From Candidatus Moraniibacteriota bacterium (lineage in GTDB: Bacteria > Patescibacteriota > Minisyncoccia > Moranbacterales > UBA1568), in contig JAAXTX010000001.1 in the NCBI GenBank assembly GCA_013336285.1, forward strand, positions 20,201 to 84,200: DNA of 64,000 nt. The letters are read 5' to 3'. The notes beneath the pieces are model-generated. The model was not told the origin of the DNA. It was given only the letters and a program-made list of their open reading frames with translations, and made no database searches. This document shows, piece by piece, positions 6,684-25,380 of the stretch. Position 1 is the first letter of the stretch. Each line of letters opens with the position of its first letter. The translations under genes and the position numbers were made by a program.

Positions 6684-6821
6684 CAGCGGCCGCCCTACGG
6701 TTTTACATGAAACCGAGTATACCGTCGAAAATGGCTCATGTCAAAGGTTTTTCACCAAAGAAAGGCATTTTTTTCGCTTTGCAAAAGGAAAATCAACAAA
6801 CATGAACCACGGACTTTTTTC

Positions 6822-7796
6822 ATGTATAATGTCGTCATGAACCAGAAAACGCCGAAACGGGAAACCCGTATCGAAGAGCTCGCGAAACGGTTCCTCGAAC
6901 ATCTCGAGATCGAGCTGAACCGTTCTCCGAAGACGCTCGACAGCTATACCCGTTCACTTCGGAAGTTTTTCGACGAGAGCGGCGTTCTAGAACCGGAAGA
7001 TATCACGTCCGACCGCGTACGGGAATATCGTCTCGCTCTCAACCGCGCAACGAACGCGCATGGGGAGCCTCTCCGAAAGACGACCCAGACCTATCACATC
7101 GTCGTTCTCCGTTCTTTTCTTAAGTTCCTCGCGAAAGAAGACGAGAAGACTTTCCCGGCCGAGAAAATATCCGTCGGCAAGTCACCGAACCGCGAAGTGG
7201 ACTTTCTCGAACTCGAGGAAGTGGAACGGCTGCTCGCGGCCGCCTCGGGAAGTTCATTACGCGCACTCCGTGATCGCGCCGTCCTCGAGCTCTTCTTCTC
7301 GGCGGGTCTTCGCGTTTCCGAACTCACGTCGCTCAACCGCGATTCGGTGAATCTGAAAAAGGGCGAGTTCAGCGTCCGGGGAAAAGGCGCGAAACTCCGG
7401 GTCGTCTTTCTTTCCGACGACGCCCGCGACGCGCTCTCCCGCTATCTGGACAAGCGCAGCGACATGGACCCGTCACTCTTCATCGCAGTCCCCAAGGCGA
7501 AGCGTACCGCACCGAAGGAACGAAAAGGTCACGCCGGCATGCGTCTCACCGAACGGAGCGTCCAACGTCTCGTGAAGAAGTATGCCGTCAAAGCGGGCAT
7601 CGTCAAGGATGTGCACCCGCATACGCTGCGTCATTCCTTCGCGACAGACCTGCTGCAGAATGGCGCCGACATCCGCGCGGTGCAGTCGATGCTCGGCCAT
7701 TCCTCCATCACGACGACCCAGGTATACACCCACGTTACCAACGAACGTCTCCGCGAGATTCACGAATCCTTCCACGCGAAGAAAAGGAAAAAATAG
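6822..7796 (+). CDS. tyrosine site-specific recombinase, XerC/XerD family
   Basis: C-terminal catalytic region HTLRHSFATDLLQNGADIRAVQSMLGHSSITTTQVYTHV (R..H..R..Y signature of tyrosine recombinases). N-terminal SAM-like core-binding region. The start was chosen at an internal Met; the ORF track gives 6738. Confidence 0.8.
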   Translation: MYNVVMNQKTPKRETRIEELAKRFLEHLEIELNRSPKTLDSYTRSLRKFFDESGVLEPEDITSDRVREYRLALNRATNAHGEPLRKTTQTYHIVVLRSFLKFLAKEDEKTFPAEKISVGKSPNREVDFLELEEVERLLAAASGSSLRALRDRAVLELFFSAGLRVSELTSLNRDSVNLKKGEFSVRGKGAKLRVVFLSDDARDALSRYLDKRSDMDPSLFIAVPKAKRTAPKERKGHAGMRLTERSVQRLVKKYAVKAGIVKDVHPHTLRHSFATDLLQNGADIRAVQSMLGHSSITTTQVYTHVTNERLREIHESFHAKKRKK

Positions 7797-7836: not shown

Positions 7837-8517
7837 TCACAGGACATCCACGATTTTCGGTTTTCGTTCGGAAAAAGAATAAAGCCTGGCGGGACGGCTC
7901 TGCCCCGATTTCCGGATCTTCCCGGTCTCCTTGACCAGGTCGATATCCAGGATTTTCTTACGGAAGTTCCGTTTGTCAAGTTCGTGACCCAGGATGATCT
8001 CATACGCCGTCTGCAGTTCGGTGAGCGTGAATTCCTTCGGCAACAGTCCGTACGCGATATTCGAGTACCCGAGTTTGTTCCGAAGCCGGTCGATTCCCAC
8101 GGAAACGATCTTCGTATGATCGAACGCGAGCTTCGGTAGTTTGGCCGTATCGTACCAGGCTATATCGGAATAGTATTCGATGGTCGCGGGCAGGCATCGG
8201 TCGCTGTTCACGAGCGCGAAATACGCGACCGAAACGCTGCGACCGCGGACATCGCGGTCGACGCCGCCGAACGCATACAACTGTTCGAGATAGATGTCGT
8301 CGACGCCGGCTTTCTCGGAAAGCACCCGTTCCGCCGCCTGATCGAGCGATTCTTCCGGTCGGACAAGACCTCCCGGAAGTGCCCATTTTCCCTTATACGG
8401 TCCGCTGCCGATCCTAATAAGCAGGACCCTGAGCGCCCCGTCGATTACGGAGAAAATGGCGGTATCGACCGCGATGAGAATCGACTGGAAGTACTGCGGC
8501 ATATCGGTTTTTTTCAT
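7837..8517 (-). CDS. nrtR: NrtR-like transcriptional regulator of NAD metabolism (degenerate Nudix domain + C-terminal winged-helix domain)
   Basis: N-terminal Nudix fold with degenerate Nudix box (GGLVRPEESLDQAAERVLSEKAGV). C-terminal segment FTLTELQTAYEIILGHELDKRNFRKKILDIDLVKETG....RPARLYSF matches the conserved wHTH of Nudix-related transcriptional regulators. It is the last gene of the pnuC-nadR operon. Confidence 0.7.
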   Translation of the reverse strand: MKKTDMPQYFQSILIAVDTAIFSVIDGALRVLLIRIGSGPYKGKWALPGGLVRPEESLDQAAERVLSEKAGVDDIYLEQLYAFGGVDRDVRGRSVSVAYFALVNSDRCLPATIEYYSDIAWYDTAKLPKLAFDHTKIVSVGIDRLRNKLGYSNIAYGLLPKEFTLTELQTAYEIILGHELDKRNFRKKILDIDLVKETGKIRKSGQSRPARLYSFSERKPKIVDVL

Positions 8518-8587: not shown

Positions 8588-9583
8588 TTACGGATCGGGA
8601 AATTCCGCAAAGAATCCGGCTCCGTCATCGGAAAAAAGCGACTCGCACGCTATCACGGCCGTCTTCATCCGACTCTCATGATCGCCGGACAAGAGGACGT
8701 ATGGCTTCCCCTCCATTTCGAGCACTTCCCGGAATCGTGCATGCATCGCATGCCGGATCGACTTCCCGTCACGGAGCCCGTCCTGTACGAACGGGATATC
8801 CGCATCAGTCAATAGATAGAGGTCACACTTTCTTCCGGCGAACCGTTTCGCGACATCTTCCGATCGCCCGCCAAGATACCGTTCATGCCACAAGTCGGTC
8901 GCCCACGAATCAGTGTCGCAAAAAAGAAGCTTGTCGGCATATCTTGCGAGCGCATCCTCCATTCGATTCTGCTCTTCGGCGATAAAATCGAATTCCCCCG
9001 ATTCCCACGCCGTTTCGGACATGATTTTTCCTTCGGTATAGATACGACCGAATTCCGGGACCCACGTCGTCCTGAAATGCTCCGCCAACGCCCGTGACAG
9101 GGTAGTCGTACCGGTCGATTCCGCCCCGACTACGACGACACGTTTCACGAAATACGAACGGACGACCGGATGCAGATATTCCCAATTCCCATACAGGTTC
9201 CCGCGGATCGCTGTCGCGGAAATGGGCACGACCCCCCTCTTCGGGTCGACCGAAACATGTTCGGCGCCGAGGAAATGCGCGTATGTCACGCCGTACGATT
9301 CGGATGTGAACACCTTATCCGGACGATATCCGAGGAAATGCAGCGTATATTTCGCCCATGCTTCGGAGTCATCGTCTTTCATGATGTCCGGAACGACCAT
9401 CACCTTGACGGAAGGATGGATCACCCTGATCCATCCGGCCCTGGTTTCTCCCGAGATTCCCTGATCGGATCGTGCGCAAACGGCTACGGTCACCTCATCG
9501 GACTGACGGATCGCCTCCTCGATAAGGAATGAATGCCCCTTATGAAACGGAAAGAATTTCCCAACGACGAATCCCCGTGTCAT
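8588..9583 (-). CDS. nadR: NadR-type bifunctional NMN adenylyltransferase / ribosylnicotinamide kinase (no N-terminal HTH)
   Basis: Nucleotidyltransferase motif GKFFPFHKGH. A second P-loop VVVVGAESTGTTTL typical of the RNK domain. The start codon overlaps the pnuC stop (ATGA). The longer ORF in the track (to 9775) overlaps pnuC and is unlikely. Confidence 0.75.
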   Translation of the reverse strand: MTRGFVVGKFFPFHKGHSFLIEEAIRQSDEVTVAVCARSDQGISGETRAGWIRVIHPSVKVMVVPDIMKDDDSEAWAKYTLHFLGYRPDKVFTSESYGVTYAHFLGAEHVSVDPKRGVVPISATAIRGNLYGNWEYLHPVVRSYFVKRVVVVGAESTGTTTLSRALAEHFRTTWVPEFGRIYTEGKIMSETAWESGEFDFIAEEQNRMEDALARYADKLLFCDTDSWATDLWHERYLGGRSEDVAKRFAGRKCDLYLLTDADIPFVQDGLRDGKSIRHAMHARFREVLEMEGKPYVLLSGDHESRMKTAVIACESLFSDDGAGFFAEFPDP

Positions 9584-10290
9584 ACGGAAAACACCCCCTC
9601 TCCGGAAGCCGGTACCGCCTCCGGCGAATCGTCGTCGCATCTTTTCGTCAGTTCCCGTCTCCATTCGATCAAACCCATGGTCGCGAGCACCAAAAACGCG
9701 GCATAGAGCAGGGACACGAATCGCACTTCCTTCACCGCATACAGCCATATGCCGATCACGTCCACGGCGATCCACAGATACCAGCTGTCAACGACCCTGA
9801 ATATCATGAGCATCTGGGCCGCGAAACTCATCACGGTCGTCACCGCATCGAGATACGGGAACGACGCGGATTCCGGAAAGACCGACGGCCACCACGTATT
9901 CACATGCGCCATGAACCAACCGAGAGCGATCGTCCCGATAAGCACGAAAGCGGCGGTAAAGGAACGTTCCAGTACGGTTCCTTTCCGAATGAGTGATTCG
10001 TCGGACTCATCCTTCTTTCCTTTGCCGACTTTTGCCCAAAACCACCAACCGTAAAAACCGGATACGAGATAATAGATCTGTTCCACGAAATCCGAATACA
10101 GGCGGATTTGAAAGAAGAGCGCGCCATACAGTACGACCGCGACGATTCCGACCGGCCAATTCAGGATATGTTTCCTTGCCACTAACCAGACTGCCGCAAT
10201 GTTGAGAATCGTCCCGAAAAACTCAAGGTAACTCATCGGATAGCCGAGAACCGAAAAAATAATGTTGTCGATACTGAAGAATGAAAGCAT
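9580..10290 (-). CDS. pnuC: nicotinamide riboside transporter PnuC
   Basis: 236 aa, 7-8 TM helices, conserved PnuC motifs (NWPVGIVAVVLY, WWFW). It sits immediately upstream of nadR and is translationally coupled to it. Confidence 0.85.
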   Translation of the reverse strand: MLSFFSIDNIIFSVLGYPMSYLEFFGTILNIAAVWLVARKHILNWPVGIVAVVLYGALFFQIRLYSDFVEQIYYLVSGFYGWWFWAKVGKGKKDESDESLIRKGTVLERSFTAAFVLIGTIALGWFMAHVNTWWPSVFPESASFPYLDAVTTVMSFAAQMLMIFRVVDSWYLWIAVDVIGIWLYAVKEVRFVSLLYAAFLVLATMGLIEWRRELTKRCDDDSPEAVPASGEGVFSV

Positions 10291-10379: not shown

Positions 10380-10420
10380 ATTGTTAGTGTATTATACACA
10401 CTATATAAATGATGTCAAAT
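10380..10420 (-). promoter_or_regulatory. consensus sigma70-type promoter (-35 TTGACA, 16-nt spacer, -10 TATAAT) with overlapping palindromic operator TAGTGTATTATACACACTA, driving pnuC-nadR-nrtR
   Basis: Minus-strand reading is ggaTTTGACAtcatttatatagtgtgTATAATacactaac. The 40-nt core is almost identical to the cassette at 25331-25380. The palindrome half-sites TAGTGT/ACACTA overlap the -10 element, a typical repressor position. Confidence 0.55.
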
Positions 10421-11367: not shown

Positions 11368-11412
11368 ACGGGGATAAAACAACGCCTCGTATCGTAATGA
11401 TGCGAGGCGTTT
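11368..11412 (-). terminator. rho-independent terminator downstream of the purA-like gene
   Basis: Minus-strand AAACGCCTCG-catcattacgata-CGAGGCGTT followed by GTTTTATCCCC. Confidence 0.5.
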
Positions 11413-11436: not shown

Positions 11437-12882
11437 TCACAGAAAGAACTTCTGATCCCCGAACGGTCCTACGGAAACCAAGCCGATCGGCATACCGGCC
11501 CCCTTTCCGGACCCGATGAAGCCGAGATACCTACGTGCATTCGAATGCAGACTCCAGGGAAACCTTGCCAACGAGATATCCGTGTTCCATCCCGGAAACT
11601 CCCGAAATTCGAGAGGCCGGCAACGGAACAGCAGTTCCGTGAATCGGGAACGTTCATCTTCATTCCTTTCCGGATCACATATGAGATCCGTTATCCTTAT
11701 CGTCCCATCACGCTTGCGGTGCCATTCGAAGTACCGGTCAAGTTCGACAGCATGGTAATCCCCTTCGCGACAATCCACCTCAAGGGTGTACGACACGCAC
11801 ACCCTTATGACCGGGAACCCCGAAAGTCTGTCCAGATTCGTCACGGCAAGCATCCCTTGTCGATGATTCAGGGACAGCGCGTACCGCGTAGCCAACGTAT
11901 CGAACCACCCGACACGGAACGCCCCCTGCCAAGGATTATGGCCGTTGAACGTTTCTTTGAGATGCCGTGACAGCCCCGGTTCCTCGGTCACGAACGGTCC
12001 GGCACCATGACGATGGGCATACGCTCGCACCACGTTCAACTTCCTTACGGTCGCCTTATCATGCTCCGCTTCCGAGATCAACCGATCGGCATTGGACATC
12101 GTACTGTCGGTTTTCGTCACATGAGGGAAAAAGCCCCCCTTATGATCAAGCAATACTCCCTGCGCCCCCTCGAACACGACTCCGTTCCGAAAATCCGGCC
12201 CGCGAGAGACGATGTTTTCCCTGAACGTTTCTCCGAGGGCGCGATACCCGTCAATAAGACGGTTCTGGTCCATATCCCTCAGAAATTTCTCCAAGGCCGT
12301 CATCGCTCCTTCATGACGATTTTCTGCCGCAAGTTGTTCCGCCTGGTCGATTTTCAGGGACCAGAGGAAACGTATCTTGCGAGAAACGACGTCACTCGTC
12401 AAATCCCCCATTCGGAGCATCTGCGAAGCGAACAGTCTCGAATCGCGGACGGCTTCCCCGACCCCCATTCCGACGCTCCCATGACGATTTTCACCACGAA
12501 CTGATTCCCTCATCTGATTCAGCAACTGATGAAGCGGCGTCACGACGATGCAATCAGGATGGATCGAAATCCGTTCCGATGCGTCGGGCATCCCCTTCCT
12601 TTTGAGGACATTCAGCTCGTCTTGAAGAGTCGCCGGATTCGTCAGCATGTATTCCGAGAGGTATGTCCTCGTTCCCGGAACGAACGACCCCGATCCGACC
12701 TGCGAGAAGCAATGCCATTTCCCCTCCCGTATGAGGACATGGTGAGCCGCCTGCGGTCCGCCATTATAGCGGACCACTTCCCTACTCTCGTTCGACCTGA
12801 CCAGAAAGTCGACGACCGATCCTTTCCCTTCGTCCCCGAATCCCGCGCCGGCCACTATGAACGATGTCTTTTCCACGATCAT
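11437..12882 (-). CDS. adenylosuccinate synthetase (PurA)-family protein, divergent and longer than canonical PurA
   Basis: N-terminal P-loop GAGFGDEGKGSVVDFL matches the PurA GDEGKGK motif. 481 aa. Its start overlaps the upstream gene's stop (ATGA). Confidence 0.6.
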   Translation of the reverse strand: MIVEKTSFIVAGAGFGDEGKGSVVDFLVRSNESREVVRYNGGPQAAHHVLIREGKWHCFSQVGSGSFVPGTRTYLSEYMLTNPATLQDELNVLKRKGMPDASERISIHPDCIVVTPLHQLLNQMRESVRGENRHGSVGMGVGEAVRDSRLFASQMLRMGDLTSDVVSRKIRFLWSLKIDQAEQLAAENRHEGAMTALEKFLRDMDQNRLIDGYRALGETFRENIVSRGPDFRNGVVFEGAQGVLLDHKGGFFPHVTKTDSTMSNADRLISEAEHDKATVRKLNVVRAYAHRHGAGPFVTEEPGLSRHLKETFNGHNPWQGAFRVGWFDTLATRYALSLNHRQGMLAVTNLDRLSGFPVIRVCVSYTLEVDCREGDYHAVELDRYFEWHRKRDGTIRITDLICDPERNEDERSRFTELLFRCRPLEFREFPGWNTDISLARFPWSLHSNARRYLGFIGSGKGAGMPIGLVSVGPFGDQKFFL

Positions 12883-13814
12883 TCCTCCCGATTTTCGATG
12901 GTTTCACGAAACGTTTCCAATATTCCCATGGCGTCCTGAAACGCGTCCGTACGTCTTGTCGAACCGAAACTCATCTCATCGCTCAACATGAAATTGCGAT
13001 AACCCATTTCGCCAAGCATGAGAAGGTCGGCGAGGTCGGCGAGTGAAACCTTCCGGCTTGTACCGAAAGATTCCAACAGTCTCGATGCGGCGATAGCGGT
13101 AGGGTCGGCTTCCACGATGGAGCGAAGGGCGTCGAACATGGCGAACGTATCATCCCGGATATTCTCGAACAGATCGTCCCTTGCCGCCATAAGTCTCACA
13201 TGTCCGCCATATTTTGGATATTCGTTCTTTACGAACGAGAGCCCTTTCGACGATTCGATCTTGGCGATGATCCTCGCCTGAGGATCGAGTTCGAGCAATT
13301 CGCGCAGATCGTTTTCCTCCTCGACGAATGACAACATGTAATTCCTGATTCCGAGTTCCTTCGCGGCCAGAACGTATGCGCGGTCTTCGTCGGTCAGATA
13401 CCCCGCGATACGGAGATTCCTTCCCCGTATGTTCACCGACTGTCCGGCCCCGACCGCTTGAAGCGGCGGCGGGTCGACATACACCCTGTTCCCCGAGACA
13501 CTCCTGATGAAAGTTCCCTGTTGAGAGCCGCGAAAACTGATTTCCGCCGGTATATCGACTTCTATCTCGTGATTGAGAACGATGTCGCCGAATGTCGGCA
13601 CGGCCCACGAAACGATACGAAGCTGCCTCCCCTTCAGGTCGACATACAAGGGCTTGCCTCCCATGACCGCGAGCAGCCGTCTCAACGTCTCCTTGGGATC
13701 AAGCGGCGACCTCGCACCGACGTTGAAACGCGCGGCGGTCAGAGTCCCGTTTGCCGCGATTATGCCGAGAGCATGCTCAAGATGCGGAGGTGGTAATGTC
13801 GCGAAAATTTCCAT
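12879..13814 (-). CDS. pyruvate-kinase-like / HpcH-CitE-like TIM-barrel protein (PEP/pyruvate-domain superfamily)
   Basis: N-terminal region (ATLPPPHLEHALGIIAANGTLTAARFNVGARS) resembles the PK-like barrel N-terminus. 311 aa. Assignment is superfamily-level only. Confidence 0.4.
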   Translation of the reverse strand: MEIFATLPPPHLEHALGIIAANGTLTAARFNVGARSPLDPKETLRRLLAVMGGKPLYVDLKGRQLRIVSWAVPTFGDIVLNHEIEVDIPAEISFRGSQQGTFIRSVSGNRVYVDPPPLQAVGAGQSVNIRGRNLRIAGYLTDEDRAYVLAAKELGIRNYMLSFVEEENDLRELLELDPQARIIAKIESSKGLSFVKNEYPKYGGHVRLMAARDDLFENIRDDTFAMFDALRSIVEADPTAIAASRLLESFGTSRKVSLADLADLLMLGEMGYRNFMLSDEMSFGSTRRTDAFQDAMGILETFRETIENREE

Positions 13815-13879
13815 TTTTTATCTCCCTGTTATTGATTTGTTCTTGCTTTTTAAAAAAACGGTCCCGATAAATCGGACCC

Positions 13880-13912
13880 GATAATATACACGGAATCATT
13901 AATAATGTCAAT
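13880..13912 (-). promoter_or_regulatory. consensus sigma70-type promoter (-35 TTGACA, 17 nt, -10 TATATT) for the PK-like/purA-like sub-operon, followed by CCCGATAA direct repeats
   Basis: Minus-strand aaaagaTTGACAttattaatgattccgtgTATATTatcgggtccgatttatcgggac. Two CCCGATAA copies lie just downstream of the -10. Confidence 0.5.
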
Positions 13913-13931: not shown

Positions 13932-13972
13932 GCAAAAAAATAAAAGGGGTGAAGCGATTTCGCCTCACCCCG
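13932..13972 (-). terminator. rho-independent terminator after the Nudix gene
   Basis: GGGGTGAAGCG-attt-CGCCTCACCCC hairpin followed on the minus strand by TTTTATTTTTTTG. Confidence 0.5.
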
Positions 13973-13982
13973 TGTGTTCACC

Positions 13983-14885
13983 TTATACCCGGATATCCAG
14001 CATTCCCAGCGCCTGTTCAAAAAGCTTCCTATGATGAGAATCCTTGAACGACGCTCCAGAAAACTCACGGCGTGACAAAACGACGACTTCTTTGACTTCA
14101 CTGCCATCCCCCTTGAACATTCCTTTCACGTCTGCGACGGAAAGCGTCTTTCCGATCTCGAACACCGCCATATAGGCAGTCGTCATGGAAACCCGCTGAA
14201 ATCCGTACGCGATATCGGCATCGCTGGTAGGTGTAAAGACGGTGCCCAGGAGTTTCAGTCGGCATTCCGACTTCTCACTTCCCTGAAACTCCGCCCGCAC
14301 CTCGATATGATCGGGGTGCGGATTTCCATCATCGCGAGGAAAGGAATCCCGCGGTTTCAACCGCAGACCGATCTCTTCGAACCCCTCCCGGATGGCACTT
14401 TCCGCCGCTGACTCTATCGAGACTCCCTTCTTGTCGATGAAACCTCCGACGAGGGCGAGCGGGCCACTTCCGGCTTCTCCCTTCCGGATACAGATGAAAT
14501 AAAGATTCCCATCGCTATCCCGAATGAACGGAAGAATATCCGCCGCGACGCCCGGCTTATGATATGCCAGATGACCGACTGCATCGGCGACATACAGATA
14601 GGATCCGTTGCCGATATCGTACCGACTGACTCGTACCGCATCGCCGAAATGACCATATCGTCCGACTCCTGCATAAGCATCGGTCGCCAAACACAGCGAT
14701 ATCGACTCCCGACCACTCGGATTCGCAATCAATACCGGATCGTACTGGGACGCTTTCCCCGAATCCGAAATGAATTGTTCCAGAAGGGGCGGGCAATGAT
14801 TCGCCGCAGACAATGTTTCCAAACTGTCAAACGGACGTTTCATCAGTTCCCCCCTATACCCATAAAAGTAAAGATGTTCCTTCAT
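13983..14885 (-). CDS. Nudix hydrolase (ADP-ribose pyrophosphatase-like) with N-terminal extension
   Basis: Canonical Nudix box GGFIDKKGVSIESAAESAIREGFEEIGL. Start chosen at MKEHL, which has an AAAGGAG SD and an ATGA overlap with the ARH stop. The ORF-track start at 14960 would overlap ARH by 78 nt. Confidence 0.7.
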   Translation of the reverse strand: MKEHLYFYGYRGELMKRPFDSLETLSAANHCPPLLEQFISDSGKASQYDPVLIANPSGRESISLCLATDAYAGVGRYGHFGDAVRVSRYDIGNGSYLYVADAVGHLAYHKPGVAADILPFIRDSDGNLYFICIRKGEAGSGPLALVGGFIDKKGVSIESAAESAIREGFEEIGLRLKPRDSFPRDDGNPHPDHIEVRAEFQGSEKSECRLKLLGTVFTPTSDADIAYGFQRVSMTTAYMAVFEIGKTLSVADVKGMFKGDGSEVKEVVVLSRREFSGASFKDSHHRKLFEQALGMLDIRV

Positions 14886-15988
14886 GATTCGCTCCTTTGT
14901 TTTTCCGATAGGGCTTCCGCCAGTTCGGTCGCCGTTTGTATGACTGCTTCCTTCCTCCATAGTCCGTCGATCAGGTGCTCATGCCCTTCGAAAAGAGCCA
15001 TGCCATTCCGAGCCCCGAGCAAGGCGCCAACCATCGATCCGTTCGAATCGGTATCACCGCCGGCATTCACCGTATCGAAGAGCGTCACGATACTCCGCGG
15101 ATTCCGCAGGAACATCGCGTACGTGAACGGGATCGAGTCAAATGCGTAGCATGACCCTTTTCCGAGCGCCGTGGACAATTCTCCGATGTTCATATGCTCC
15201 CAACACCGTGTTTCGAGCATCCATCTCAACCGATCCGAAATCCTATCGGTAATGACATCATCAGAAAGAATGTTCTCACCGACAAGACACGCATCGATGA
15301 CGATTTCCAGGAATCGCGTTTCGAAGTCCTCGTCCGGAAGGGTAAGGCTGGCGAAAACCGCGTAAGCCTGCGCGAGTCCGGACGCCGCTCCCATTTGGGT
15401 CGCATGAGTCATGAGTCCGACTTTGATCATTTTGGCGTCAAAGGCCACACGATACTCGGAAAATCTCTTCTCCATATCGGCGACACTGTATCGCCTGCTC
15501 AGCCGTTGATACGCCGATGCCAGAATCATTCCGAAGGGAGCCGCTTTCATGGCGACACCGTTTCCGGCACCGTTCTCGGTTCCGGACTCACTCCAGTGAA
15601 TCCCCGCTCGGATCTTCTCCAACGCCTTCCTCGTACTCCCGCCCATTCCGCTTATCAGCATGCAGGAATCTGACACGAGTCGACGCGAGATATCATCGCA
15701 GTCAATAAGATAGCTTCCCGGGAATCCCCTTCCTACGCGTCTTATGACATCGATTATCGACTCCGCGCATGCCTGCGTATGACACCAGTCGTCGGTCCAC
15801 ATTCCGGCCTTCATTCCCTCGCCGTGAAACCGGTGGTCTTTCGGCGGATCGACATAGCCCCTGATCCGTCCGAACCTTTTCGCGATCGTTTTCGCGGAAT
15901 ATATTTCCGCCGGCATCCCGAGCGCATCGCCGATAGCGACAAAAAGCATCGCGGCTTTCATGCGGTCTTTCATTCCTTCCAAACCCAT
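14882..15988 (-). CDS. ADP-ribosylglycohydrolase (ARH/DraG family)
   Basis: 368 aa with family hallmarks: N-terminal AIGDALGMPAE, GMWTDD and a C-terminal DTDSNGSMVGALLGA metal-binding motif. Confidence 0.8.
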   Translation of the reverse strand: MGLEGMKDRMKAAMLFVAIGDALGMPAEIYSAKTIAKRFGRIRGYVDPPKDHRFHGEGMKAGMWTDDWCHTQACAESIIDVIRRVGRGFPGSYLIDCDDISRRLVSDSCMLISGMGGSTRKALEKIRAGIHWSESGTENGAGNGVAMKAAPFGMILASAYQRLSRRYSVADMEKRFSEYRVAFDAKMIKVGLMTHATQMGAASGLAQAYAVFASLTLPDEDFETRFLEIVIDACLVGENILSDDVITDRISDRLRWMLETRCWEHMNIGELSTALGKGSCYAFDSIPFTYAMFLRNPRSIVTLFDTVNAGGDTDSNGSMVGALLGARNGMALFEGHEHLIDGLWRKEAVIQTATELAEALSEKQRSES

Positions 15989-16124: not shown

Positions 16125-16829
16125 CTAAAGAACTATCTGTTCGACGATCAACGCACCGCTCTGTTGCATGGAAAACAGCGCGAACAGTTCGCTGAGATCT
16201 CGCGGGTGCACTCCGGGCAAATCATAGGTCACGACCGCATCTATCGGGATGATGACCTGCAGGTCCGACGGAATGAACCCTCTCGTCCGCAGATTCAGGA
16301 TCGCAAGTACCGTTTCCATCACGCAGATATCAGTGCATATGCCGCCGACAATGAGTGTCTTGATCTGACTCGCATTGATCCATTCGATGAATCCGGTAAG
16401 TTTGCCGATATCTCCCACTATGCCGTTATTGCAATCTTTGCGAAGCAGGAATACGAAACAGCTTTTCTCGGTCCACCTGAGCGGCTCGATAATGGCACTT
16501 TCGGGAGTTCCCAGAACGCAGTGTTCCGGATAGACCCCTTCCCGCTGACCAGCCTCATGACCTTCGGCATACATGACGACCGAGGCTTTGATCCAGTTCA
16601 GATATTCCAGCAATCGGACGCATTCCGCGACCATCGCCGGTACCTCACTGTCATCTTTCGGAGGGGACAACGGCCCGCAACCCGGCGTACAGAATCCGTC
16701 CACCAAGTCGATGAACGCGCCCCCTACCGTATTCTCAAGGTGGCGGATATCGTATGCGTCGACGATATTCAGTCCGACTCCATGCCGTTTCGCGAGTTCG
16801 CGAAACTTTTCCGCCTTTTTACTCTGCAT
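16125..16829 (-). CDS. isochorismatase-family cysteine hydrolase (PncA-like nicotinamidase candidate)
   Basis: Catalytic-Cys region TLIVGGICTDICVMETVLAI typical of the isochorismatase/nicotinamidase fold. Start at internal MQSKK with an AAGGAGAAG SD. Confidence 0.6.
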   Translation of the reverse strand: MQSKKAEKFRELAKRHGVGLNIVDAYDIRHLENTVGGAFIDLVDGFCTPGCGPLSPPKDDSEVPAMVAECVRLLEYLNWIKASVVMYAEGHEAGQREGVYPEHCVLGTPESAIIEPLRWTEKSCFVFLLRKDCNNGIVGDIGKLTGFIEWINASQIKTLIVGGICTDICVMETVLAILNLRTRGFIPSDLQVIIPIDAVVTYDLPGVHPRDLSELFALFSMQQSGALIVEQIVL

Positions 16830-17011
16830 ATTCTTCTCCTTTTTTTGTGATACGTTTTTTGATACACGGTTATTTTTTAGGAACCCTGAACGGTCACGGG
16901 ATAAGCCCAAGCTACGTCGGAAAAGACATTCCCCCGACAAAAATTGTCTTGAATTGGAAAATAATGGGGACCGATGCATTCGATATCGGTCCCCGACCTT
17001 TCAAAACGTAC

Positions 17012-18514
17012 TCATAACCGCTTCGTCTTTCCGGAACGATTTTTTCCGGGCGCTCCAGGCAGCGTACCGCTCACTTTGACGATGGCTCCGGCTTTCGCAT
17101 CGGAGAATCCCTCCAAAGCCCTCCTTACCTGACCCTGCCTCAACTGCGTCTGACCGCGCTCGCCCATATCGACGACATACTGGTCCAGACCCGCTCCCGA
17201 GGAGAGAGCTATGGCTCCGAGCATGACGTCCACGATCGCGCGCGGATCATCGATAACAAGGATATTCTCATCCGGTATGACGCCCGCCCACTGATTCCGA
17301 ATCAGCGTGTCATCATACCCGGCATACCGGTCGACGGCTTCGGGCCGTTCATCCGGATCGAACTCGAATTCCCCGACAAAGACGTTCGCCGCGTTATTCG
17401 GATTTTCCACATCTGAAGAACCGCCTCTGACCGATACGACCGGGGCGATACCTTCGAAATGCGCGATTTTCCCGTTTATCTCACTCTCGACCCTGAACGG
17501 AGTGGCCTCTCGCGATGGTTCATGATACGCGAAGTTCTGTACGAACACCTCGTACTTCCCCTTCGGAGCACGCCCTTTCGGCCACCGGGTATTCTCGATC
17601 GGCTTGGTCGTCTCACCATGAACGTTCCTGTCCACGTCGAGTTCGCCGCCGCAGCGCGAATGCTTGTGACTGAAATAGATGTGCTCCCCGCTCGGCGCGA
17701 TGACATGCAGATCGAGATCGTTCCGGTTGTCCCATATCAGCGAGAAGCGGACATCGACACCTTCATGCATGGCACCGGCCTCAAGAACCCTTTTCCTTAT
17801 CTCCTCGTCGATATCGGTCTTGCGTTCCTGCCAGGTCTTCTTCGGATAGATGAAGAACACATCGTATTTCTCCTGGAGTTTCGCGAATACCGTCCCAGAA
17901 TCCAAGTCTTCCGGCAAAGAGTCGCCGATAAGTCGCTTTACCTGATCCTTTGATATCTTGGGGTAGAATCCCTCGTCCCCAAGGAAAAACAGGATGCCTT
18001 TCTCTCCGCGCTTGAGGCAGTCCAACTCCGTATGCGTCGCGTAGTAATAGGCGAGAAGCTCATAGGACTCCTGTCCCGTTCCGCCGCCGCCTTCCTCAAG
18101 CCAGATATTTCCGAGTACTTCGTCCAGCCGGTTGTCCGACTCGAACTGCCCTACCTGAATCGGGGCCTTGTCTCCGCAGGTCGCATCACCGACGGCGGCA
18201 AAACTGATGACCGGATGTTGCACCCACCCTTTCATGATCAGCTGCCCGATAAACATCGGTAGCTTTCCGTAGATGACCTTCGCATCATCGCCGCGCGACC
18301 GCGTATCATCCATCACGACCGCGATCGGTTTGGTGTTCGGATGTTCCGCCGAATCACGACACTCCCGTATCTTCCCCTTGATGTTTAACAAGGGGTGCAC
18401 TTCGCGCTGGGTCGGTTGCGTCGGATCGCTCGCATACCCACGAAAACTGAAATGATCGTTCAGGGAAGAACGCTGACGTTCCCCTACGTCTCCATCGTAA
18501 TGATTATCACCCAT
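17012..18514 (-). CDS. vWA-like domain protein with C-terminal beta-rich domain of unknown function
   Basis: MIDAS-like DDTRS, plus vWA-like GGGTGQESYELL and ILFFLGDEGF segments in the N-terminal half. The C-terminal ~230 aa are uncharacterised. Paired with the J-domain kinase upstream (30-bp gap). Confidence 0.4.
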   Translation of the reverse strand: MGDNHYDGDVGERQRSSLNDHFSFRGYASDPTQPTQREVHPLLNIKGKIRECRDSAEHPNTKPIAVVMDDTRSRGDDAKVIYGKLPMFIGQLIMKGWVQHPVISFAAVGDATCGDKAPIQVGQFESDNRLDEVLGNIWLEEGGGGTGQESYELLAYYYATHTELDCLKRGEKGILFFLGDEGFYPKISKDQVKRLIGDSLPEDLDSGTVFAKLQEKYDVFFIYPKKTWQERKTDIDEEIRKRVLEAGAMHEGVDVRFSLIWDNRNDLDLHVIAPSGEHIYFSHKHSRCGGELDVDRNVHGETTKPIENTRWPKGRAPKGKYEVFVQNFAYHEPSREATPFRVESEINGKIAHFEGIAPVVSVRGGSSDVENPNNAANVFVGEFEFDPDERPEAVDRYAGYDDTLIRNQWAGVIPDENILVIDDPRAIVDVMLGAIALSSGAGLDQYVVDMGERGQTQLRQGQVRRALEGFSDAKAGAIVKVSGTLPGAPGKNRSGKTKRL

Positions 18515-18543: not shown

Positions 18544-19647
18544 TTACGGTAATACGAATTCCAGAAACCTGATCGGCCCCCAGAGTTCGACTCTCAAATC
18601 CTGTAGCATTTTATGCATCTCCCAGGCGTCCTGTGCCCGCTGAATCGGACTTTCCCTCACGAGAAACTCCAGAAATCTTGCGAATCCCGGGGTCGTCCCG
18701 TGTGGCATCCGGTTCGTCTTCACGTTCCCACCGAGCGCGTAAATCATGCTTTTCCCGACAGCGTATAGGTCCGATGACGGCAACGGCGGTTTTCCTTCGG
18801 CGACTTCCGACGGACTGTAATCCTCGTTAAGCACCTTGAACCGCTCACCTGCTTTCTGGCCACCGATCGCATAACTCCAATCGACGAGCGAAAGATTATG
18901 ATCGCGAGGTCGGATCATGACATGCGCCGGCTCGATATTGCCATGAATGACTCCTCGGGAATGAACATACCCTACGACACTCAGGAGACGCGTAAGCATC
19001 CATGCGACGTGTTGTTCAGGTATACCGTTCCGATAACGGTCCGACTCCCTGATAGCCACAAGGTCGTAATAGCCGTCCAGCATCTCCAGGATAAGAGCCT
19101 GACGTCCGTCCTCGGCCTTGAAACGGTCGATCATCATCGGTAGATGCTTGTCCTGTGCTCCCGGATTTTCCTTGAGTCTTCTCAGTGTCCGGATCTCGTT
19201 TTGCATGAGATCGTTGTCCGCCGGATCATCGACCAGCTTCAGCACGATCTTCCGCTCGGTCATCGCGTCGATGCCGTAGTACACGGTCGAAAGATCCCCC
19301 TGGGCCAGACGCGAGCTGATCTTGTACTCCCGATCTCCGACACGGATGGAAAAACTCTCTTCCGCCGTCTCATCGGGAACCGTGGAGCCGTAGACGCCCG
19401 CCTCGATTCTCACCTTTGCCTTCTCAAAGAGCTCCGAGAGCCTCTTGAACGCCCCGTCAGCATCGCTTTTTCTCCGTGAATTCCGATCCGGATGAACCGT
19501 TTTCGATAGGTTTCGATACAGGCGTTTCACTTCGGTCAATTTGTCCCCGACGCCCGTAAGCATACCGAAAATATCTTCCGGTCCGGTCGCGGAACCTATC
19601 CTCTCGGAAAGGATTTCGAATTCCGTTTCACTGACCATATCCAACAC
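18544..19647 (-). CDS. J-domain (DnaJ-like) fused to a divergent Ser/Thr protein-kinase-like domain
   Basis: N-terminal J domain with an HPD motif (KRLYRNLSKTVHPDRN). Kinase fold follows: glycine-rich GDLSTVYYG, VLKL lysine, catalytic loop IHGNIEPAHVMI (HGN in place of HRD) and DWS in place of DFG. Confidence 0.55.
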   Translation of the reverse strand: MLDMVSETEFEILSERIGSATGPEDIFGMLTGVGDKLTEVKRLYRNLSKTVHPDRNSRRKSDADGAFKRLSELFEKAKVRIEAGVYGSTVPDETAEESFSIRVGDREYKISSRLAQGDLSTVYYGIDAMTERKIVLKLVDDPADNDLMQNEIRTLRRLKENPGAQDKHLPMMIDRFKAEDGRQALILEMLDGYYDLVAIRESDRYRNGIPEQHVAWMLTRLLSVVGYVHSRGVIHGNIEPAHVMIRPRDHNLSLVDWSYAIGGQKAGERFKVLNEDYSPSEVAEGKPPLPSSDLYAVGKSMIYALGGNVKTNRMPHGTTPGFARFLEFLVRESPIQRAQDAWEMHKMLQDLRVELWGPIRFLEFVLP

Positions 19648-19797: not shown

Positions 19798-22248
19798 CTA
19801 TTCAGAATTCCTGTACAGCCCCAACCGTTCTATGTACTCGACGACACCCCGAGGGACGAGATCGTCTATCGATTCACCTCTTGCCAGACGTTCCCGTACC
19901 ATGGTTCCCGACCCTATGATGGGACCCATACAAATCGATTCGGAAACGGGAGGCAATTCTCCGGGAGATATCTCGTGACCCGGACGATCGACGACCACCC
20001 ACTGCAGCGTCTTCCAGATGACCGGACCATGCGTCCAGGTCCTCTGGATATCGGACTTCCCATCAGCCCCCCTGGTGACAAGGTCGGAACCGACCGCGAA
20101 CCAGATATCGGCATCGGGATACCGCTCCGCATACCGCTCCGACAGATGATAACTCGGCGTATATGTCTTATCCCGGATGTCGGTCAGGTCCACGACGACA
20201 CGGTCCAGACCACCGAACGCGATTTCCGACATGACACCGCGATGCATCGGATCGATGACATTCGCAGACGCCTTGTCAGGGCGTTCCCCGCACGGCATCA
20301 CGATTACGAGATCGAACATTTCCGTGAGTACCTTCGCTATGCCGACATGGTGGTTACACGGCGAATTGAAGCTGCCTCCATAGACGGCGATTCTCCGCTT
20401 TCCTCCGTTCCAAGTGCGACCGGCAAGCAGATCCCGTTTCAGACGTTCGTACCGCAACGTCCGCATCACACCGAGCATCGATTCCCGGAAGTCATATCCG
20501 AACGATCTGCGGGACACCTTTATGATAGGTGGGGCCTGCACCCGTTTGCGGACGGAACCGATAAACAGCTCCCAACACCGCTCAAGGTCTTTGACGAACG
20601 TTTCCTTGGTCGGGAACAGTCGGTCCAGCGTTCCTGTATCGAGTTTCATTTCCGCTTCGAGCCGGCCGGTCGCATACAGGTTCAACACCCATTCCGGTCC
20701 CTTCAGGAATTCCACGAACGCCCGCACCAGCTCGTCATGATACCCGCGACGATGCAGGTTCCCATAATCGAACGGGTCGGCCCCCGTCTCTGAAAGCTCC
20801 GCCATCGGCGCTATCGTGAAACATCGATCCGGAATGACCGGGTTCGGGAATACCTTGCGGTTCATATGATCCGCCAACTGGTATACCTCACGTTTCACGA
20901 GATCGCCTATCGGAAGGACGAATCCTGCGATATCGCCGTACATGGTCCCATACCCGAACGCGAGCTCAACCTTGTTCCCGTTTCCGATGAACACCCCACC
21001 GATTTCCTCTGTCTTTGCGGCAAGGATCTCCATGCGTACACGTGCCTGGATATTCGAGTATGCCCGCGTACCGGGTTTACAACCCGCCTTTGCCGCGATC
21101 GCATCGACAAGTTCGCCGATAGGAATCGTTTCGACGGGAACATCCAAACGACGAGCGATATCATACACTAATCCGAGTGTTTCATCGGAAGTATTCTCCG
21201 TCGGCATCGTGACCAGGAACACATTTTCTTTTCCGAGCACCTTGACCGACAATGCCGCCGTAGTAGCGGAATCGATACCGCCCGAGAGCCCAATGACCAC
21301 CTTGCGCATCCCGGATGGAAGCGTTTGGAACTGTTCATAAAAGGCGAAACTCAGGGCATTATACAGATCGGACGTATCGTCCTGGTCCACCGAAGCTATC
21401 GATGGCATATTATCCGCGAAGGTGACATCGGATGTCCCGGAAACGTACGTTCCGGACACGTGCACGATCTTCCCCTGCGAATCATACACGGTCGAACATC
21501 CGTCGAACGTTATGATGTTCTTTCCGTTGTTCTGTATCCCCACGTTGTTCACGTAGATGAGCGGAACCTTGCATTCCGCAAGCAGCATGCGCGCGACCTC
21601 GTTTCGGACCAGGTTCTTATGCCAGTCGTACGGCGAAGAAGACAGGTTGATTATGATGTCCGCCCCTTCCTCCACCAGACGGGCTCCCGGATTGCAGGCA
21701 TGATGCGTATGCCACATGTCCTCGCATATGATGATTCCCAAACGGATCGTCTTTCCCTGGAAAGTCATCTTGATCGGACGAAACGACAGCGGGTCGCCCG
21801 ATTCGAACGATTCTTCCTTCCTGGAGAAGAAATGCCTGTCATCCTCGAATACGCCGTAGTTCGGATGATTCGTCTTGATGACCTGACCGAGCATTACCCC
21901 GTCCCGGACCGCGATCGCCGCGTTCGATATCCTTCGCCGCCCGTTCTTTCCAGTCTTCCCACTTGCGGCAACCAGACTTCCGAACACCACGACGATGTCC
22001 TTTCCGACCGTCGATTCGCGGATCCGATCGTTCCACTCGAGCACGTCGTCGACGAACCCGTCGTTCCCGAACACATCCCCAAGACAATACCCGGGCACGC
22101 TCAGTTCGGGAAACACGATCAGAGGGATGCCGCGCTTCTCGGCGTCGGCGATTTCACGGACGATATGCTCACCGTTCACCCGTGAATTCCCGGGAACGAT
22201 CTTCACCTGGCAGATCGCCGCCTTGAGTCCGTTCAACTTCCTATCCAT
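19798..22248 (-). CDS. nadE: glutamine-dependent NAD+ synthetase (CN-hydrolase + NAD synthetase domains) fused to a C-terminal NadD-like NaMN/NMN adenylyltransferase domain
   Basis: N-terminal nitrilase-like domain (PELSVPGYCLGD). Central PP-loop SGGIDS ATP-pyrophosphatase. C-terminal RIAVYGGSFNSPCNHHVGIAKVL nucleotidyltransferase (H/T-x-G-H-like) domain. 816 aa in a single ORF. Confidence 0.75.
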   Translation of the reverse strand: MDRKLNGLKAAICQVKIVPGNSRVNGEHIVREIADAEKRGIPLIVFPELSVPGYCLGDVFGNDGFVDDVLEWNDRIRESTVGKDIVVVFGSLVAASGKTGKNGRRRISNAAIAVRDGVMLGQVIKTNHPNYGVFEDDRHFFSRKEESFESGDPLSFRPIKMTFQGKTIRLGIIICEDMWHTHHACNPGARLVEEGADIIINLSSSPYDWHKNLVRNEVARMLLAECKVPLIYVNNVGIQNNGKNIITFDGCSTVYDSQGKIVHVSGTYVSGTSDVTFADNMPSIASVDQDDTSDLYNALSFAFYEQFQTLPSGMRKVVIGLSGGIDSATTAALSVKVLGKENVFLVTMPTENTSDETLGLVYDIARRLDVPVETIPIGELVDAIAAKAGCKPGTRAYSNIQARVRMEILAAKTEEIGGVFIGNGNKVELAFGYGTMYGDIAGFVLPIGDLVKREVYQLADHMNRKVFPNPVIPDRCFTIAPMAELSETGADPFDYGNLHRRGYHDELVRAFVEFLKGPEWVLNLYATGRLEAEMKLDTGTLDRLFPTKETFVKDLERCWELFIGSVRKRVQAPPIIKVSRRSFGYDFRESMLGVMRTLRYERLKRDLLAGRTWNGGKRRIAVYGGSFNSPCNHHVGIAKVLTEMFDLVIVMPCGERPDKASANVIDPMHRGVMSEIAFGGLDRVVVDLTDIRDKTYTPSYHLSERYAERYPDADIWFAVGSDLVTRGADGKSDIQRTWTHGPVIWKTLQWVVVDRPGHEISPGELPPVSESICMGPIIGSGTMVRERLARGESIDDLVPRGVVEYIERLGLYRNSE

Positions 22249-23606: not shown

Positions 23607-24950
23607 TCATACAACTACAACCTGTTTTTTTGAGCCCTCTTCTCCAAATATTTTCTTGAAGAGGGCGACCCTATCCGCCGGGCCGGTCGCTTTTTCCGGA
23701 TTATCGGAAAGTTTCACCGCAGGCACCCCGTTCGCTTCTGATACCTTACAGACCATGGAAAACGGACGGAATAAACCGAATGCCCCGTCATTCCTCGGCC
23801 AGAGTCCGCGACAGTCGTTCCCGACGAGCGTCCCCCAGCCATATGACAATGTCCCGACCGCTGACGCGTTCTCACGAGAACAACCGAGCATGGTGTCAGT
23901 ATCGAGTCCGTCGCTCGGTAAAATCATCTTCGTCATCGGATCGACGCCGTGTCGCTTCCACCACTCAACGGTGACCCGGACAGCCTCGTTCGGCTCCATC
24001 GAGTCCGGACGGACTCCTTTCCAGTCCCTCGCGAACGACGCGGGCGCATGCCTATAGAAGTGAGCGGTCCCATACGTATCCGGAAGAAGGATACTCATAT
24101 CGGGGCCGAAGTAGTCGTACCACTTCTGTGACATGGTGAATGGCGCTTGAAATATCCTATCGTGATCATTCCCCGCCAGACACCCTTCGATCATATACAG
24201 CTCGTGAGCGTTCGTACCTTTCGGATTCGCGCTCCCATGCTGCATGGCCAGAAGGACATTCGAAGTCCCGAGACACTGCGACGGAAGCATTTCCGACATG
24301 TACCTCATCACGATCTCCTGGAAAAATCGGCTCTGTCTCCGCCTCGTATCGAAAAGGATGAAGGAAAGCGCGCGTTCCTCACGCAACGCCTTCGCCTTTT
24401 CGAAAAGCCTGGCGACCATACCCGTGTATATCGACAGAATCTCCGATGAGGAAAGCTTCGCGTTCAGGATCAGATGGTAGTAATAAAGCTCCGAAACGAT
24501 CACCATCGCAATTATTTCCCAGAACGTCACCTTCCATGAGGGACCGGTGAAGGTCAGAACATACCCGCCTTCCTGTTTCTCCAGTATGAATGGAGGCAAG
24601 ACCGGACGAGACATCTCTTCCAGAAAATCATCCGACCGGATCAGGCGAGTTCGCCCGTCACTTCCTGTCATTCCTGCCAGGAACGACCGTTCCGCCGGCG
24701 TAAGACAAAGAGCCCTTGCCGCCTCAAGTTGTTCACGAAGCACATCTTCCGGGATGATGTCGGCCAGACGGATATACTTGTCACGAATGATAAGCTTGAA
24801 GGTCGTCTCGACATCCCTGTATTCGGCATGATCGAAATAGAATACGGCCATGAACCATTTGTACACGTCCGTATCGATCAGGCTTTTGACGATCGCTTCC
24901 CCGTTCGGGATACAGAATATATCCCGCAGACCGAGCCCTTGTAATTTCAT
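23607..24950 (-). CDS. pncB: nicotinate (or nicotinamide) phosphoribosyltransferase, PncB-like
   Basis: N-terminal LIDTDVYKWFMAVFYF matches the LLDTD.YK motif of type II PRTases of the NAPRT/NAMPT family. 447 aa. Confidence 0.65.
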   Translation of the reverse strand: MKLQGLGLRDIFCIPNGEAIVKSLIDTDVYKWFMAVFYFDHAEYRDVETTFKLIIRDKYIRLADIIPEDVLREQLEAARALCLTPAERSFLAGMTGSDGRTRLIRSDDFLEEMSRPVLPPFILEKQEGGYVLTFTGPSWKVTFWEIIAMVIVSELYYYHLILNAKLSSSEILSIYTGMVARLFEKAKALREERALSFILFDTRRRQSRFFQEIVMRYMSEMLPSQCLGTSNVLLAMQHGSANPKGTNAHELYMIEGCLAGNDHDRIFQAPFTMSQKWYDYFGPDMSILLPDTYGTAHFYRHAPASFARDWKGVRPDSMEPNEAVRVTVEWWKRHGVDPMTKMILPSDGLDTDTMLGCSRENASAVGTLSYGWGTLVGNDCRGLWPRNDGAFGLFRPFSMVCKVSEANGVPAVKLSDNPEKATGPADRVALFKKIFGEEGSKKQVVVV

Positions 24951-25330: not shown

Positions 25331-25380
25331 GATTTGACAGGATTTATATAGTGTGTATAATACACTTAGTAAGTTCACAA
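25331..25380 (+). promoter_or_regulatory. consensus sigma70-type promoter (-35 TTGACA, 16 nt, -10 TATAAT) with overlapping palindrome TAGTGTGTATAATACACT, driving the isochorismatase-vWA-PP2C-kinase operon
   Basis: gatTTGACAggatttatatagtgtgTATAATacacttagtaag is nearly identical to the pnuC promoter at 10380-10420. A third related motif, TACTTAGTGTGTTACTTAC, lies at 25508-25530. Confidence 0.55.

Follow-up and report, generated by a model that had tools for sequence, protein, structure and literature searches.

What might a homolog of adenylosuccinate synthetase (PurA) and a homolog of pyruvate kinase (PK), encoded side by side, be doing among genes for the metabolism of nicotinamide adenine dinucleotide (NAD)? 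The question is raised by a 64,000-nucleotide stretch of contig JAAXTX010000001.1 from a Candidatus Moraniibacteriota bacterium, which in its full length is called the window hereafter. The initial annotation of this locus had viewed the two genes as a sub-operon that could act with phosphoribosyltransferase (PRTase), Nudix, and ARH genes upstream to make or process a modified nucleotide. Our analysis reveals that the pair is part of a conserved four-gene cassette, composed of genes for a J-domain kinase-like protein, a von Willebrand A (vWA)/MIDAS protein, a short PK, and a PurA-family ligase, that co-occurs across many phyla and in phages. Tentatively, we suggest below that the two enzymes couple an amine to a nucleotide.

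A divergent PurA homolog with a predicted new acceptor site

The PurA-like protein matches the Pfam model Adenylsucc_synt at 233 bits and has a full-length PurA fold, as indicated by matches in the Protein Data Bank (PDB) with E values of 1e-40 for the single sequence and 1e-72 for the family profile. Its identity to Escherichia coli PurA (EC 6.3.4.4) is 29-30%, and it fails the NCBIfam PurA equivalog models NF002223 (193.9 versus a cut-off of 402) and TIGR00184 (178.1 versus 395.55), which upholds its initial description as a divergent family member rather than a housekeeping equivalog. It also fails the NCBIfam model NF038379 (52.6 versus a cut-off of 300) for PurZ, the PurA paralog of the phage 2-aminoadenine pathway. 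NCBI annotates the protein as an adenylosuccinate synthetase, and the same label is carried by homologs of approximately 40% identity from Patescibacteria, Thermoanaerobaculia, Leptospiraceae, Myxococcales, and metagenome-assembled genomes of Spirochaetota.

Residues were mapped by aligning 31 family members, together with the family profile, to E. coli PurA structures, whose numbering is used here. The features shared with PurA are the GDEGKG P-loop (D13 and K16), H41, Q224, T239, the guanine-specifying D333, and the C-terminal SxGP motif. Most family members, the window protein among them, also have R143, and by this alignment part of the inosine monophosphate (IMP) site of PurA is retained. 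Other positions are changed. N38 is replaced by Q, T128/T129 by S/C, and V273 by an invariant H, while position 131 (R in PurA) is variable. The loop T300-T301-G-R303-R304-R305 becomes W-Q-G-x-F, in which T300 is changed to W, T301 to Q, and R305 to F, position 303 is variable, and R304 is deleted. In addition, K331 is replaced by N and approximately 40 residues are inserted after residue 370. Rather than being Arg-rich, the rebuilt pocket abounds in W, F, H, Q, and N.

Mutagenesis and structures of PurA have established R131, R303, R304, T300, T301, and V273 as its aspartate determinants. As judged from the aligned residues, all L-aspartate determinants have been swapped for a family-specific signature. 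Because these determinants are replaced while the GTP-binding and catalytic residues are kept, the enzyme very probably does not use L-aspartate, and it very probably still performs the GTP-dependent activation of a nucleotide oxygen. A useful comparison is PurZ, another member of the PurA family that phages have recruited and whose substrate is altered. However, the change in PurZ is in the nucleotide, with aspartate still serving as the nucleophile, whereas it is the aspartate site that is changed in the window ligase.

A short pyruvate kinase homolog

The second enzyme had been described initially as a PK-like or CitE/HpcH-like barrel protein that is translationally coupled to the PurA homolog. 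The coupling is real, in that the stop of the PK-like open reading frame (ORF) and the start of the PurA-like ORF share the four nucleotides ATGA on the minus strand, and the homology to PK also stands. The CitE/HpcH identity is rejected, because neither a sequence match nor a closest-fold match to these proteins was obtained, and a PDB search with the family profile matched only pyruvate kinases (E = 6e-12).

The window protein scores below the cut-offs of Pfam PF00224 (24.7 bits versus a gathering threshold of 30) and NCBIfam TIGR01064 (24.8 bits versus 306), unlike many of its homologs, which pass the Pfam cut-off. The PK barrel fold is present along with the catalytic and metal-binding residues (R73, N75, D113, K270, E272, D296, and T328 of the rabbit enzyme), with which invariant residues of the family are aligned. 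By this alignment, the protein is a PK homolog in which the residues for phosphoenolpyruvate (PEP), metal, and phosphoryl transfer are intact. It ends after the barrel and is without the C-terminal alpha/beta (allosteric) domain of PK. A solved short PK of 321 amino acids (aa) exists. Identity of the 311-aa window protein to pyruvate kinases, including the short enzyme of Entamoeba histolytica (PDB 8iw2), amounts to 17-23%. The family is small and well separated from true PKs, as a search of 1.84 billion representatives gives 162 clusters at E ≤ 1e-30.

A conserved cassette with frequent links to NAD genes

A survey of GTDB species representatives found 269 with the PK-like gene, from which 80 loci were kept, and three more were added by homolog look-ups to give 83 loci in which gene presence was counted by tblastn. 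The taxa include Patescibacteria, DPANN and Methanosarcinales archaea, Acidobacteriota, Myxococcota, Clostridia, Chloroflexota, Planctomycetota, and others. Along with the PK-like gene itself (83 loci), homologs are present for the 500-aa vWA gene in 80 loci, the PurA-like gene in 56, the kinase-like gene in 48, and NadE in 33. Moreover, in 47 of 55 loci the next gene after the PK-like gene, in the same orientation, is the PurA-like gene. The nearly constant vWA partner sets the PK-like protein apart from pyruvate kinase, and the location of the ligase gene in a vWA/kinase/NAD cassette, rather than in a purine-gene context, sets it apart from PurA. Full-text literature searches yielded no published account of what the cassette does.

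In cells, genes of NAD synthesis and salvage usually surround the cassette. In 30 of the 65 long loci, one or more dedicated NAD gene families lie within approximately 10 kb, among them NrtR, NMNAT, a PRK-type kinase, NAD kinase, and nicotinate phosphoribosyltransferase (NAPRTase). The usual gene order is (NadE-NMNAT)-(PRK-type kinase)-kinase-vWA-PK-ligase. Other layouts are PK-ligase-kinase(P-loop)-kinase-vWA in Clostridia, NMNAT-vWA-PK-NadE in Chloroflexi, and Nudix-NMNAT-kinase-vWA-x-PK-ARH-NAD kinase in DPANN archaea. The slot after the PK-like gene can also be filled by PP-loop amidoligases, which are NadE in Chloroflexi-type loci and a QueC-like domain in one PK-QueC fusion.

According to the survey, PRTase, Nudix, and ARH genes are not the conserved partners of the pair. 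The neighbors that recur are the vWA and J-domain kinase-like genes, with which the initial annotation had made no connection. The only PRTases among the 83 loci are NAPRTase-type NAD-salvage genes, which are present in eight of them. An assignment of the 500-aa gene as a PRTase was also rejected, since its product is a vWA domain protein and the real NAPRTase gene is located elsewhere in the window (Table 1). The earlier statement that neither member of the pair is needed for canonical NAD salvage remains valid.

Some loci carry additional genes. The locus with the PK-QueC fusion (L090; 4358-7556 of contig CAYWEY010000022.1, GCA_964457955.1) encodes a vWA protein with an MGGG tail, followed by the fusion protein and then by an AAA_28 (NadR-type) kinase. 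The same cluster includes NrdD, a radical-SAM/B12 protein, a thymidylate-synthase-like gene, and a dCTP deaminase, and it is a nucleotide-metabolism version of the cassette rather than an NAD version. In two other loci (L030, 14820-16916, and L004), a protein of approximately 700 aa (family f37) is encoded downstream of the PurA-like gene. Its sole Pfam match is a kinase domain, and a C-terminal HxGH-type nucleotidyltransferase motif was seen by eye. This protein is flanked by two other recurrent uncharacterized proteins, f35 and f36.

The vWA and J-domain partners

The vWA protein consists of a conserved N-terminal tail, a vWA domain, a beta-sandwich, and a helical C-terminus. Its vWA domain in the window matches no Pfam VWA or TerY model. 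The N-terminal tail is predicted with low confidence and begins with Met-Gly-Gly(-Gly)-x-Tyr-Asp-x-Asp-Val. Tails of this MGG(G)xYDxDV type occur in 55 loci, 51 of which have the PurA-like gene, as opposed to none of the 21 loci with a MYSW-type tail (Fisher p = 4e-15, uncorrected for phylogeny). The tail type tracks the ligase more closely than it tracks the kinase. This relationship extends to phages, in that Catera has an MGSG tail with a ligase and the phage LR745208 has a non-MGG tail without one. Loci with an MGG-type tail and no PurA-like gene include L027, L029, and L041, in which none is nearby, and L090, in which the PK-QueC fusion is found instead.

Other parts of the vWA protein also carry recognizable features. 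The C-terminus of the MGG-type proteins is a conserved basic tail (...GKxRxGKxxRL-COOH), and that of the Chloroflexi-type proteins bears a CxxC...CxxC zinc-ribbon-like motif. The beta-sandwich (residues 234-365), which is DUF2135/YfaP-like with DLDLH...DVDxN motifs, has stand-alone homologs in several hundred phage genomes, including Vi01-like Salmonella, Klebsiella, Escherichia, Caulobacter, and Bacillus phages. These phage proteins carry the label hypothetical or, strangely, "putative DNA-directed RNA polymerase."

The other partner carries the HPD motif of J-domains and a protein-kinase-like domain that keeps the VAIK Lys and the APE Glu. The catalytic loop reads HGN(I)xPxH/N, with the HRD Asp changed to Asn, in 35 of 44 homologs. 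Because the loop is HGN rather than HRD in these homologs, the protein may be a pseudokinase, and possibly it recruits DnaK. With PADLOC, the kinase domain matches the generic kinase models PD-T4-6 and mad6, and there were zero matches for the ligase, PK-like, vWA, ARH, and Nudix proteins.

Copies of the cassette in phages

The vWA domain of the window protein is 44% identical to a hypothetical protein of approximately 200 cluster C (Bxz1-like) mycobacteriophages, where the genes flanking the corresponding gene are one for a Ser/Thr-kinase-like protein and one for a "PurA-like adenylosuccinate synthetase." Genes 249, 250, and 252 of phage Catera (gp249-250-252) are such a copy of the cassette. 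The cluster C PurA homologs (e.g., Catera gp252) belong to the same subfamily as the window ligase, to which they are 34-38% identical, and bear its signature residues (RxNGGxQAxH, FSQFGS, GSCG, TRHG, WQGxFR, and T(N/H)LD). The cassettes of these cluster C phages differ in that they are without a PK-like gene and without NAD neighbors, and no NAD genes were found in the 65 kb examined around the copy in phage JayJay. These phage PurA-like proteins are annotated by homology only, and no functional study of them was found in the literature. In RefSeq (e.g., NC_008207.1 gp252) the label is "2-aminooxy adenylosuccinate synthetase," as opposed to "PurA-like adenylosuccinate synthetase" in GenBank, and an experimental basis was found for neither.

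Other phage sequences include the PK-like gene. The uncultured jumbo phage LR745208 (485 kb) has J-kinase-vWA-PK-like genes with a nearby ARH gene, and three large IMG/VR contigs encode vWA-PK-ligase, the full four genes, and kinase-vWA-PK, respectively.

Gene arrangement and predicted control elements in the window

The genes of the window are ordered NAPRTase, NMNAT-Nudix, NadE-NMNAT, J-domain kinase-like, vWA, PncA-like, ARH, Nudix-like, then a terminator and a promoter, PK-like, PurA-like, a second terminator, SDR, PnuC, NadR-like, and NrtR (Table 1). Three genes are thus placed between the two halves of the cassette. In the closest relative (locus L084; 65-75% aa identity), PncA-like and Nudix-like genes are inserted at this place without ARH, and in most other loci the vWA gene is directly upstream of the PK-like gene. 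The insertion of PncA-like, ARH, and Nudix-like genes is specific to this lineage, and the "sub-operon" is a split of the larger conserved cassette. This division by three NAD/ADP-ribose genes would explain the separate promoter of the PK-ligase pair and the acquisition of a small palindromic site that resembles an operator.

Table 1. Positions of cassette genes, neighboring genes, and predicted control elements in the window
Feature	Position	Strand	Remarks
NrtR gene	7837-8517		Edge of the NAD gene cluster
Terminator-like hairpin and U-run ending the bicistron	11374-11411	minus	z = -3.5
Predicted PurA-family GTP-dependent ligase gene	11437-12882	minus	481 aa; predicted rebuilt acceptor pocket
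Short PK-like gene	12879-13814	minus	311 aa; A barrel and small B domain, no C domain
Imperfect inverted repeat ATCGG-GT-CCGAT-TT-ATCGGGA (candidate operator)	13862-13884	minus	Formed by the two TTATCGGG copies; after/overlapping the -10 box
Sigma-70-type promoter of the bicistron, TTGACA-17-TATATT	13883-13911	minus	11/12 consensus positions; -35 box aligned in L084
Intrinsic terminator of the upstream unit, after the Nudix-like gene	13946-13971	minus	11-bp stem, 8 GC pairs, U-run
Nudix-like gene	13983-14960	minus	Inserted between vWA and PK-like genes
ARH gene	14882-15988	minus	Inserted between vWA and PK-like genes
Isochorismatase/PncA-like gene	16125-16979	minus	Inserted between vWA and PK-like genes
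vWA/MIDAS protein gene	17012-18514	minus	500 aa; cassette partner
J-domain (HPD) and protein-kinase-like gene	18544-19647	minus	Pfam Pkinase and DnaJ; cassette partner
NadE (CN-hydrolase and NAD synthase) fused to NMNAT-like domain	19798-22248	minus	Frequent cassette neighbor; homologs in 33/83 loci
NAPRTase gene	23607-24950		Standard NAD-salvage PRTase; not a cassette member

The dedicated promoter that had been assigned to the pair is confirmed. There are eight sites in the 64-kb window that match at least 11 of the 12 sigma-70 consensus positions, compared with 0.49 in shuffled sequences, and those examined (at 13911, 10418, 25208/25334, and 6744) all lie just upstream of genes. Therefore, the organism uses such consensus promoters, and the 13911 site is among its strong ones. 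The unit is insulated by hairpins on both sides. At its end, the 77-nucleotide fold that contains the terminator-like hairpin has a free energy of -24.8 kcal/mol, and none of 200 shuffles folds as well.

The two repeats that the initial annotation considered a possible operator are both real, as CCCGATAA (TTATCGGG on the coding strand) is found at 13863-13870 and at 13877-13884. Because this 8-mer occurs six times in the window versus 3.15 times expected, the pair of copies is suggestive rather than strong evidence. Their reading as direct repeats is less apt in light of L084, which has the -35 box and the GTCCGAT heptamer in the same register and continues with ATCCGGA where the window has ATCGGGA. 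The conserved element is therefore more aptly viewed as an imperfect inverted repeat, TCCGAT-n-ATC(S)GGA, directly after the -10 box, and it is a candidate operator. A riboswitch or attenuator in the 5′ untranslated region of the bicistron was considered and rejected, since there is no Rfam match and no significant RNA structure, with a fold no better than that of shuffles (z = -0.85).

Two perfect (12/12) sigma-70 promoters in the window share an identical core of approximately 25 nucleotides, TTTATATAGTGTGTATAATACACT. One of them (10391-10418, minus strand) precedes pnuC-nadR-nrtR and the other (25334-25361, plus strand) precedes a plus-strand gene at 25608-26423. The core holds a palindrome, TAGTGTnnATnATACACTA, over the -10 box that is probably the operator of the NrtR encoded in the window. 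Control of the PK-ligase promoter by NrtR is not supported, because this NrtR-box-like palindrome is absent there.

Two further features of this part of the window were observed. A tyrosine recombinase/integrase gene (6738-7796, plus strand) adjoins the NrtR gene at the edge of the NAD cluster, and the window as a whole has uniform GC content with no compositional island. The longest NadR-like ORF (8588-9775, minus strand) has a GTG start and overlaps the PnuC ORF (9580-10290, minus strand) by approximately 195 nucleotides, and the true start of NadR is probably further downstream than this GTG.

A proposed function and its alternatives

The reading that we favor, with reservations substantial enough that we would not yet call it probable, is that the PK-ligase pair supplies the enzymes of a conserved cassette that moves horizontally and carries out nucleotide-amine coupling tied to the NAD pool. 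The ligase would transfer phosphate from GTP to the 6-oxo (lactam) oxygen of an IMP-like nucleotide, and an amine other than aspartate would displace the phosphate to yield an N6-substituted or plain adenine-type nucleotide. The short PK might spend PEP to recharge GDP or, alternatively, to lift the product from diphosphate to triphosphate. The product could then enter or alter the adenine-nucleotide/NAD pool via the neighboring NMNAT and NadE, and the vWA and J-domain proteins might scaffold or regulate the two enzymes. The PP-loop amidoligases (NadE and QueC-like) that occupy the ligase slot in other loci fit a shared theme, which is to activate an oxygen and replace it with nitrogen. A nucleotide-like compound, as envisioned in the initial annotation, remains the most reasonable class of product, although not with PRTase, Nudix, and ARH proteins as the partner enzymes.

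Several observations weigh against this proposal. The genes nearby encode neither a PurB-type lyase nor an obvious amine donor, and one would not expect partners such as the vWA and kinase-like proteins in a simple metabolic pathway. The link to NAD is frequent and not universal, as clostridial and phage loci are without dedicated NAD genes, and in DPANN loci it is ARH and not the ligase that comes after the PK-like gene. The nucleotide substrate may be one other than IMP, because the R143 and T128/T129 positions are not strictly conserved. The role of the PK is also affected. A role purely in GTP regeneration is weakened by the loci in which PP-loop enzymes (NadE and QueC-like) replace the PurA-like gene. 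Since PP-loop enzymes make AMP, which PK is unable to recharge, nucleoside triphosphate regeneration leaves the NadE and QueC variants unexplained.

Two of the alternatives place the genes in a different biological setting. The cassette might be a conflict module, that is, a phage takeover or counter-defense device or its cellular counterpart, that protects or rebuilds the NAD/adenylate pool or makes a nucleotide analog during infection rather than in steady-state metabolism. The presence of copies in approximately 200 Bxz1-like mycobacteriophages, in the jumbo phage, and on the three IMG/VR contigs would be consistent with this role, as would the patchy spread across bacteria and archaea, and partners of a kind typical for conflict systems, namely the kinase with its match to PD-T4-6/mad6 and the adjoining ARH, Nudix, and NrtR (ADP-ribose sensor) genes. 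Phage NAD-reconstitution pathways exist and offer precedents. Nevertheless, we consider a conflict role unlikely, given that the ligase, PK-like, and vWA proteins have no PADLOC match, that the cassette resides within NAD biosynthesis operons rather than defense islands, that it is enriched in small-genome candidate phyla radiation (CPR) and DPANN organisms in which a metabolic role is plausible, and that the uniform GC content gives no sign of an island. Conversely, the two genes might simply encode the organism's own adenylosuccinate synthetase and pyruvate kinase, made divergent by fast protein evolution in CPR bacteria. This would agree with the NCBI label, with the intact catalytic cores of both enzymes, and with the lack of a second PurA homolog within the 64-kb window. 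It seems very unlikely nonetheless, because the aspartate determinants are replaced by a signature that is conserved across phyla and phages, the scores are far under the equivalog cut-offs, the PK-like family is tiny beside true PKs, and the genes are linked to those for vWA (80/83 loci) and kinase-like (48/83) proteins. Furthermore, members of the family occur in Myxococcota, Acidobacteria, Planctomycetes, Clostridia, and Methanosarcinales with large genomes, in which canonical purA and pyk genes are to be expected.

The remaining alternatives concern what the vWA protein does with these enzymes. The ligase might be directed at a protein, with the N-terminal alpha-amine or tail of the vWA protein taking the place of L-aspartate, so that a purine nucleotide becomes attached via its C6 as N6-peptidyl-AMP and the PK-like and J-domain proteins act on the same complex. 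The association of MGG tails with the ligase, which is stronger than that with the kinase and is echoed by the Catera and LR745208 phages, argues for this arrangement. So does the Gly at position 2 of the tail, a residue that favors Met removal, as well as the W/F/H/Q/N-rich rather than Arg-rich pocket. However, the correlation may merely mark two cassette subfamilies, the four loci listed above have an MGG-type tail without a PurA-like gene, and no PurA-family enzyme is known to modify a protein. We therefore regard a protein-directed ligase as quite unlikely. A more specific version, for which we have still lower expectations, is that the invariant Gly-rich N-terminus exposed by Met removal would serve as the nucleophile, linking the protein to a purine nucleotide through the base as N6-peptidyl-AMP, within a cassette that CPR bacteria, DPANN archaea, and large phages have in common and that is tied to NAD homeostasis. 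To our knowledge, this protein modification is without precedent. Finally, the locus had been likened to the Ter-associated nucleoside-like metabolite module and the TerY-P triad, reportedly described by Anantharaman, Iyer and Aravind in 2012, in which case a PRTase and a CitE-like lyase would make a nucleoside-like metabolite, and this synthesis would be coupled to a vWA-kinase switch. The likeness lies in the concept of a vWA protein and a kinase that accompany nucleotide-type biosynthetic enzymes, and a NAPRTase gene is present 10 kb upstream in the window. But the systems share no homologous enzymes, as the barrel is that of PK rather than CitE/HpcH, and the PRTase is a standard NAD-salvage NAPRTase outside the cassette. 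Neither Pfam VWA nor TerY models detect the vWA domain, and the cassette kinase has a J-domain and usually no catalytic Asp. Genes for TerB, TerC, or TerD, PP2C phosphatases, and ATP-grasp proteins are absent both from the window and from the annotated recurrent neighbor families of the 83 loci. The comparison is thus an analogy only, and a Ter/TerY-P-type function here is highly improbable.

Implications for the PurA family and for NAD-linked metabolism

PurA has been seen as a single-reaction family, and we know of no functional variant besides PurZ. From their conserved residues, the PurA-like proteins described here form a third branch of the family, present across several phyla and in phages, in which the predicted GTP activation chemistry is kept and the acceptor site is rebuilt. 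Because the one is kept but the other rebuilt, it is likely that this branch catalyzes a new reaction. We found no published description of the cassette that is defined by the fixed association of these proteins with a truncated PK, a vWA/MIDAS protein, and a J-domain kinase-like protein, by its location within NAD operons of CPR and DPANN organisms that have minimal genomes, and by its occurrence in approximately 200 mycobacteriophages. Solving its function could explain a long-annotated and unexplained gene set of the Bxz1-like phages, and would correct the labels adenylosuccinate synthetase and pyruvate kinase that these proteins widely and wrongly carry. It could also reveal a new nucleotide- or NAD-related metabolite, or perhaps a new protein modification.

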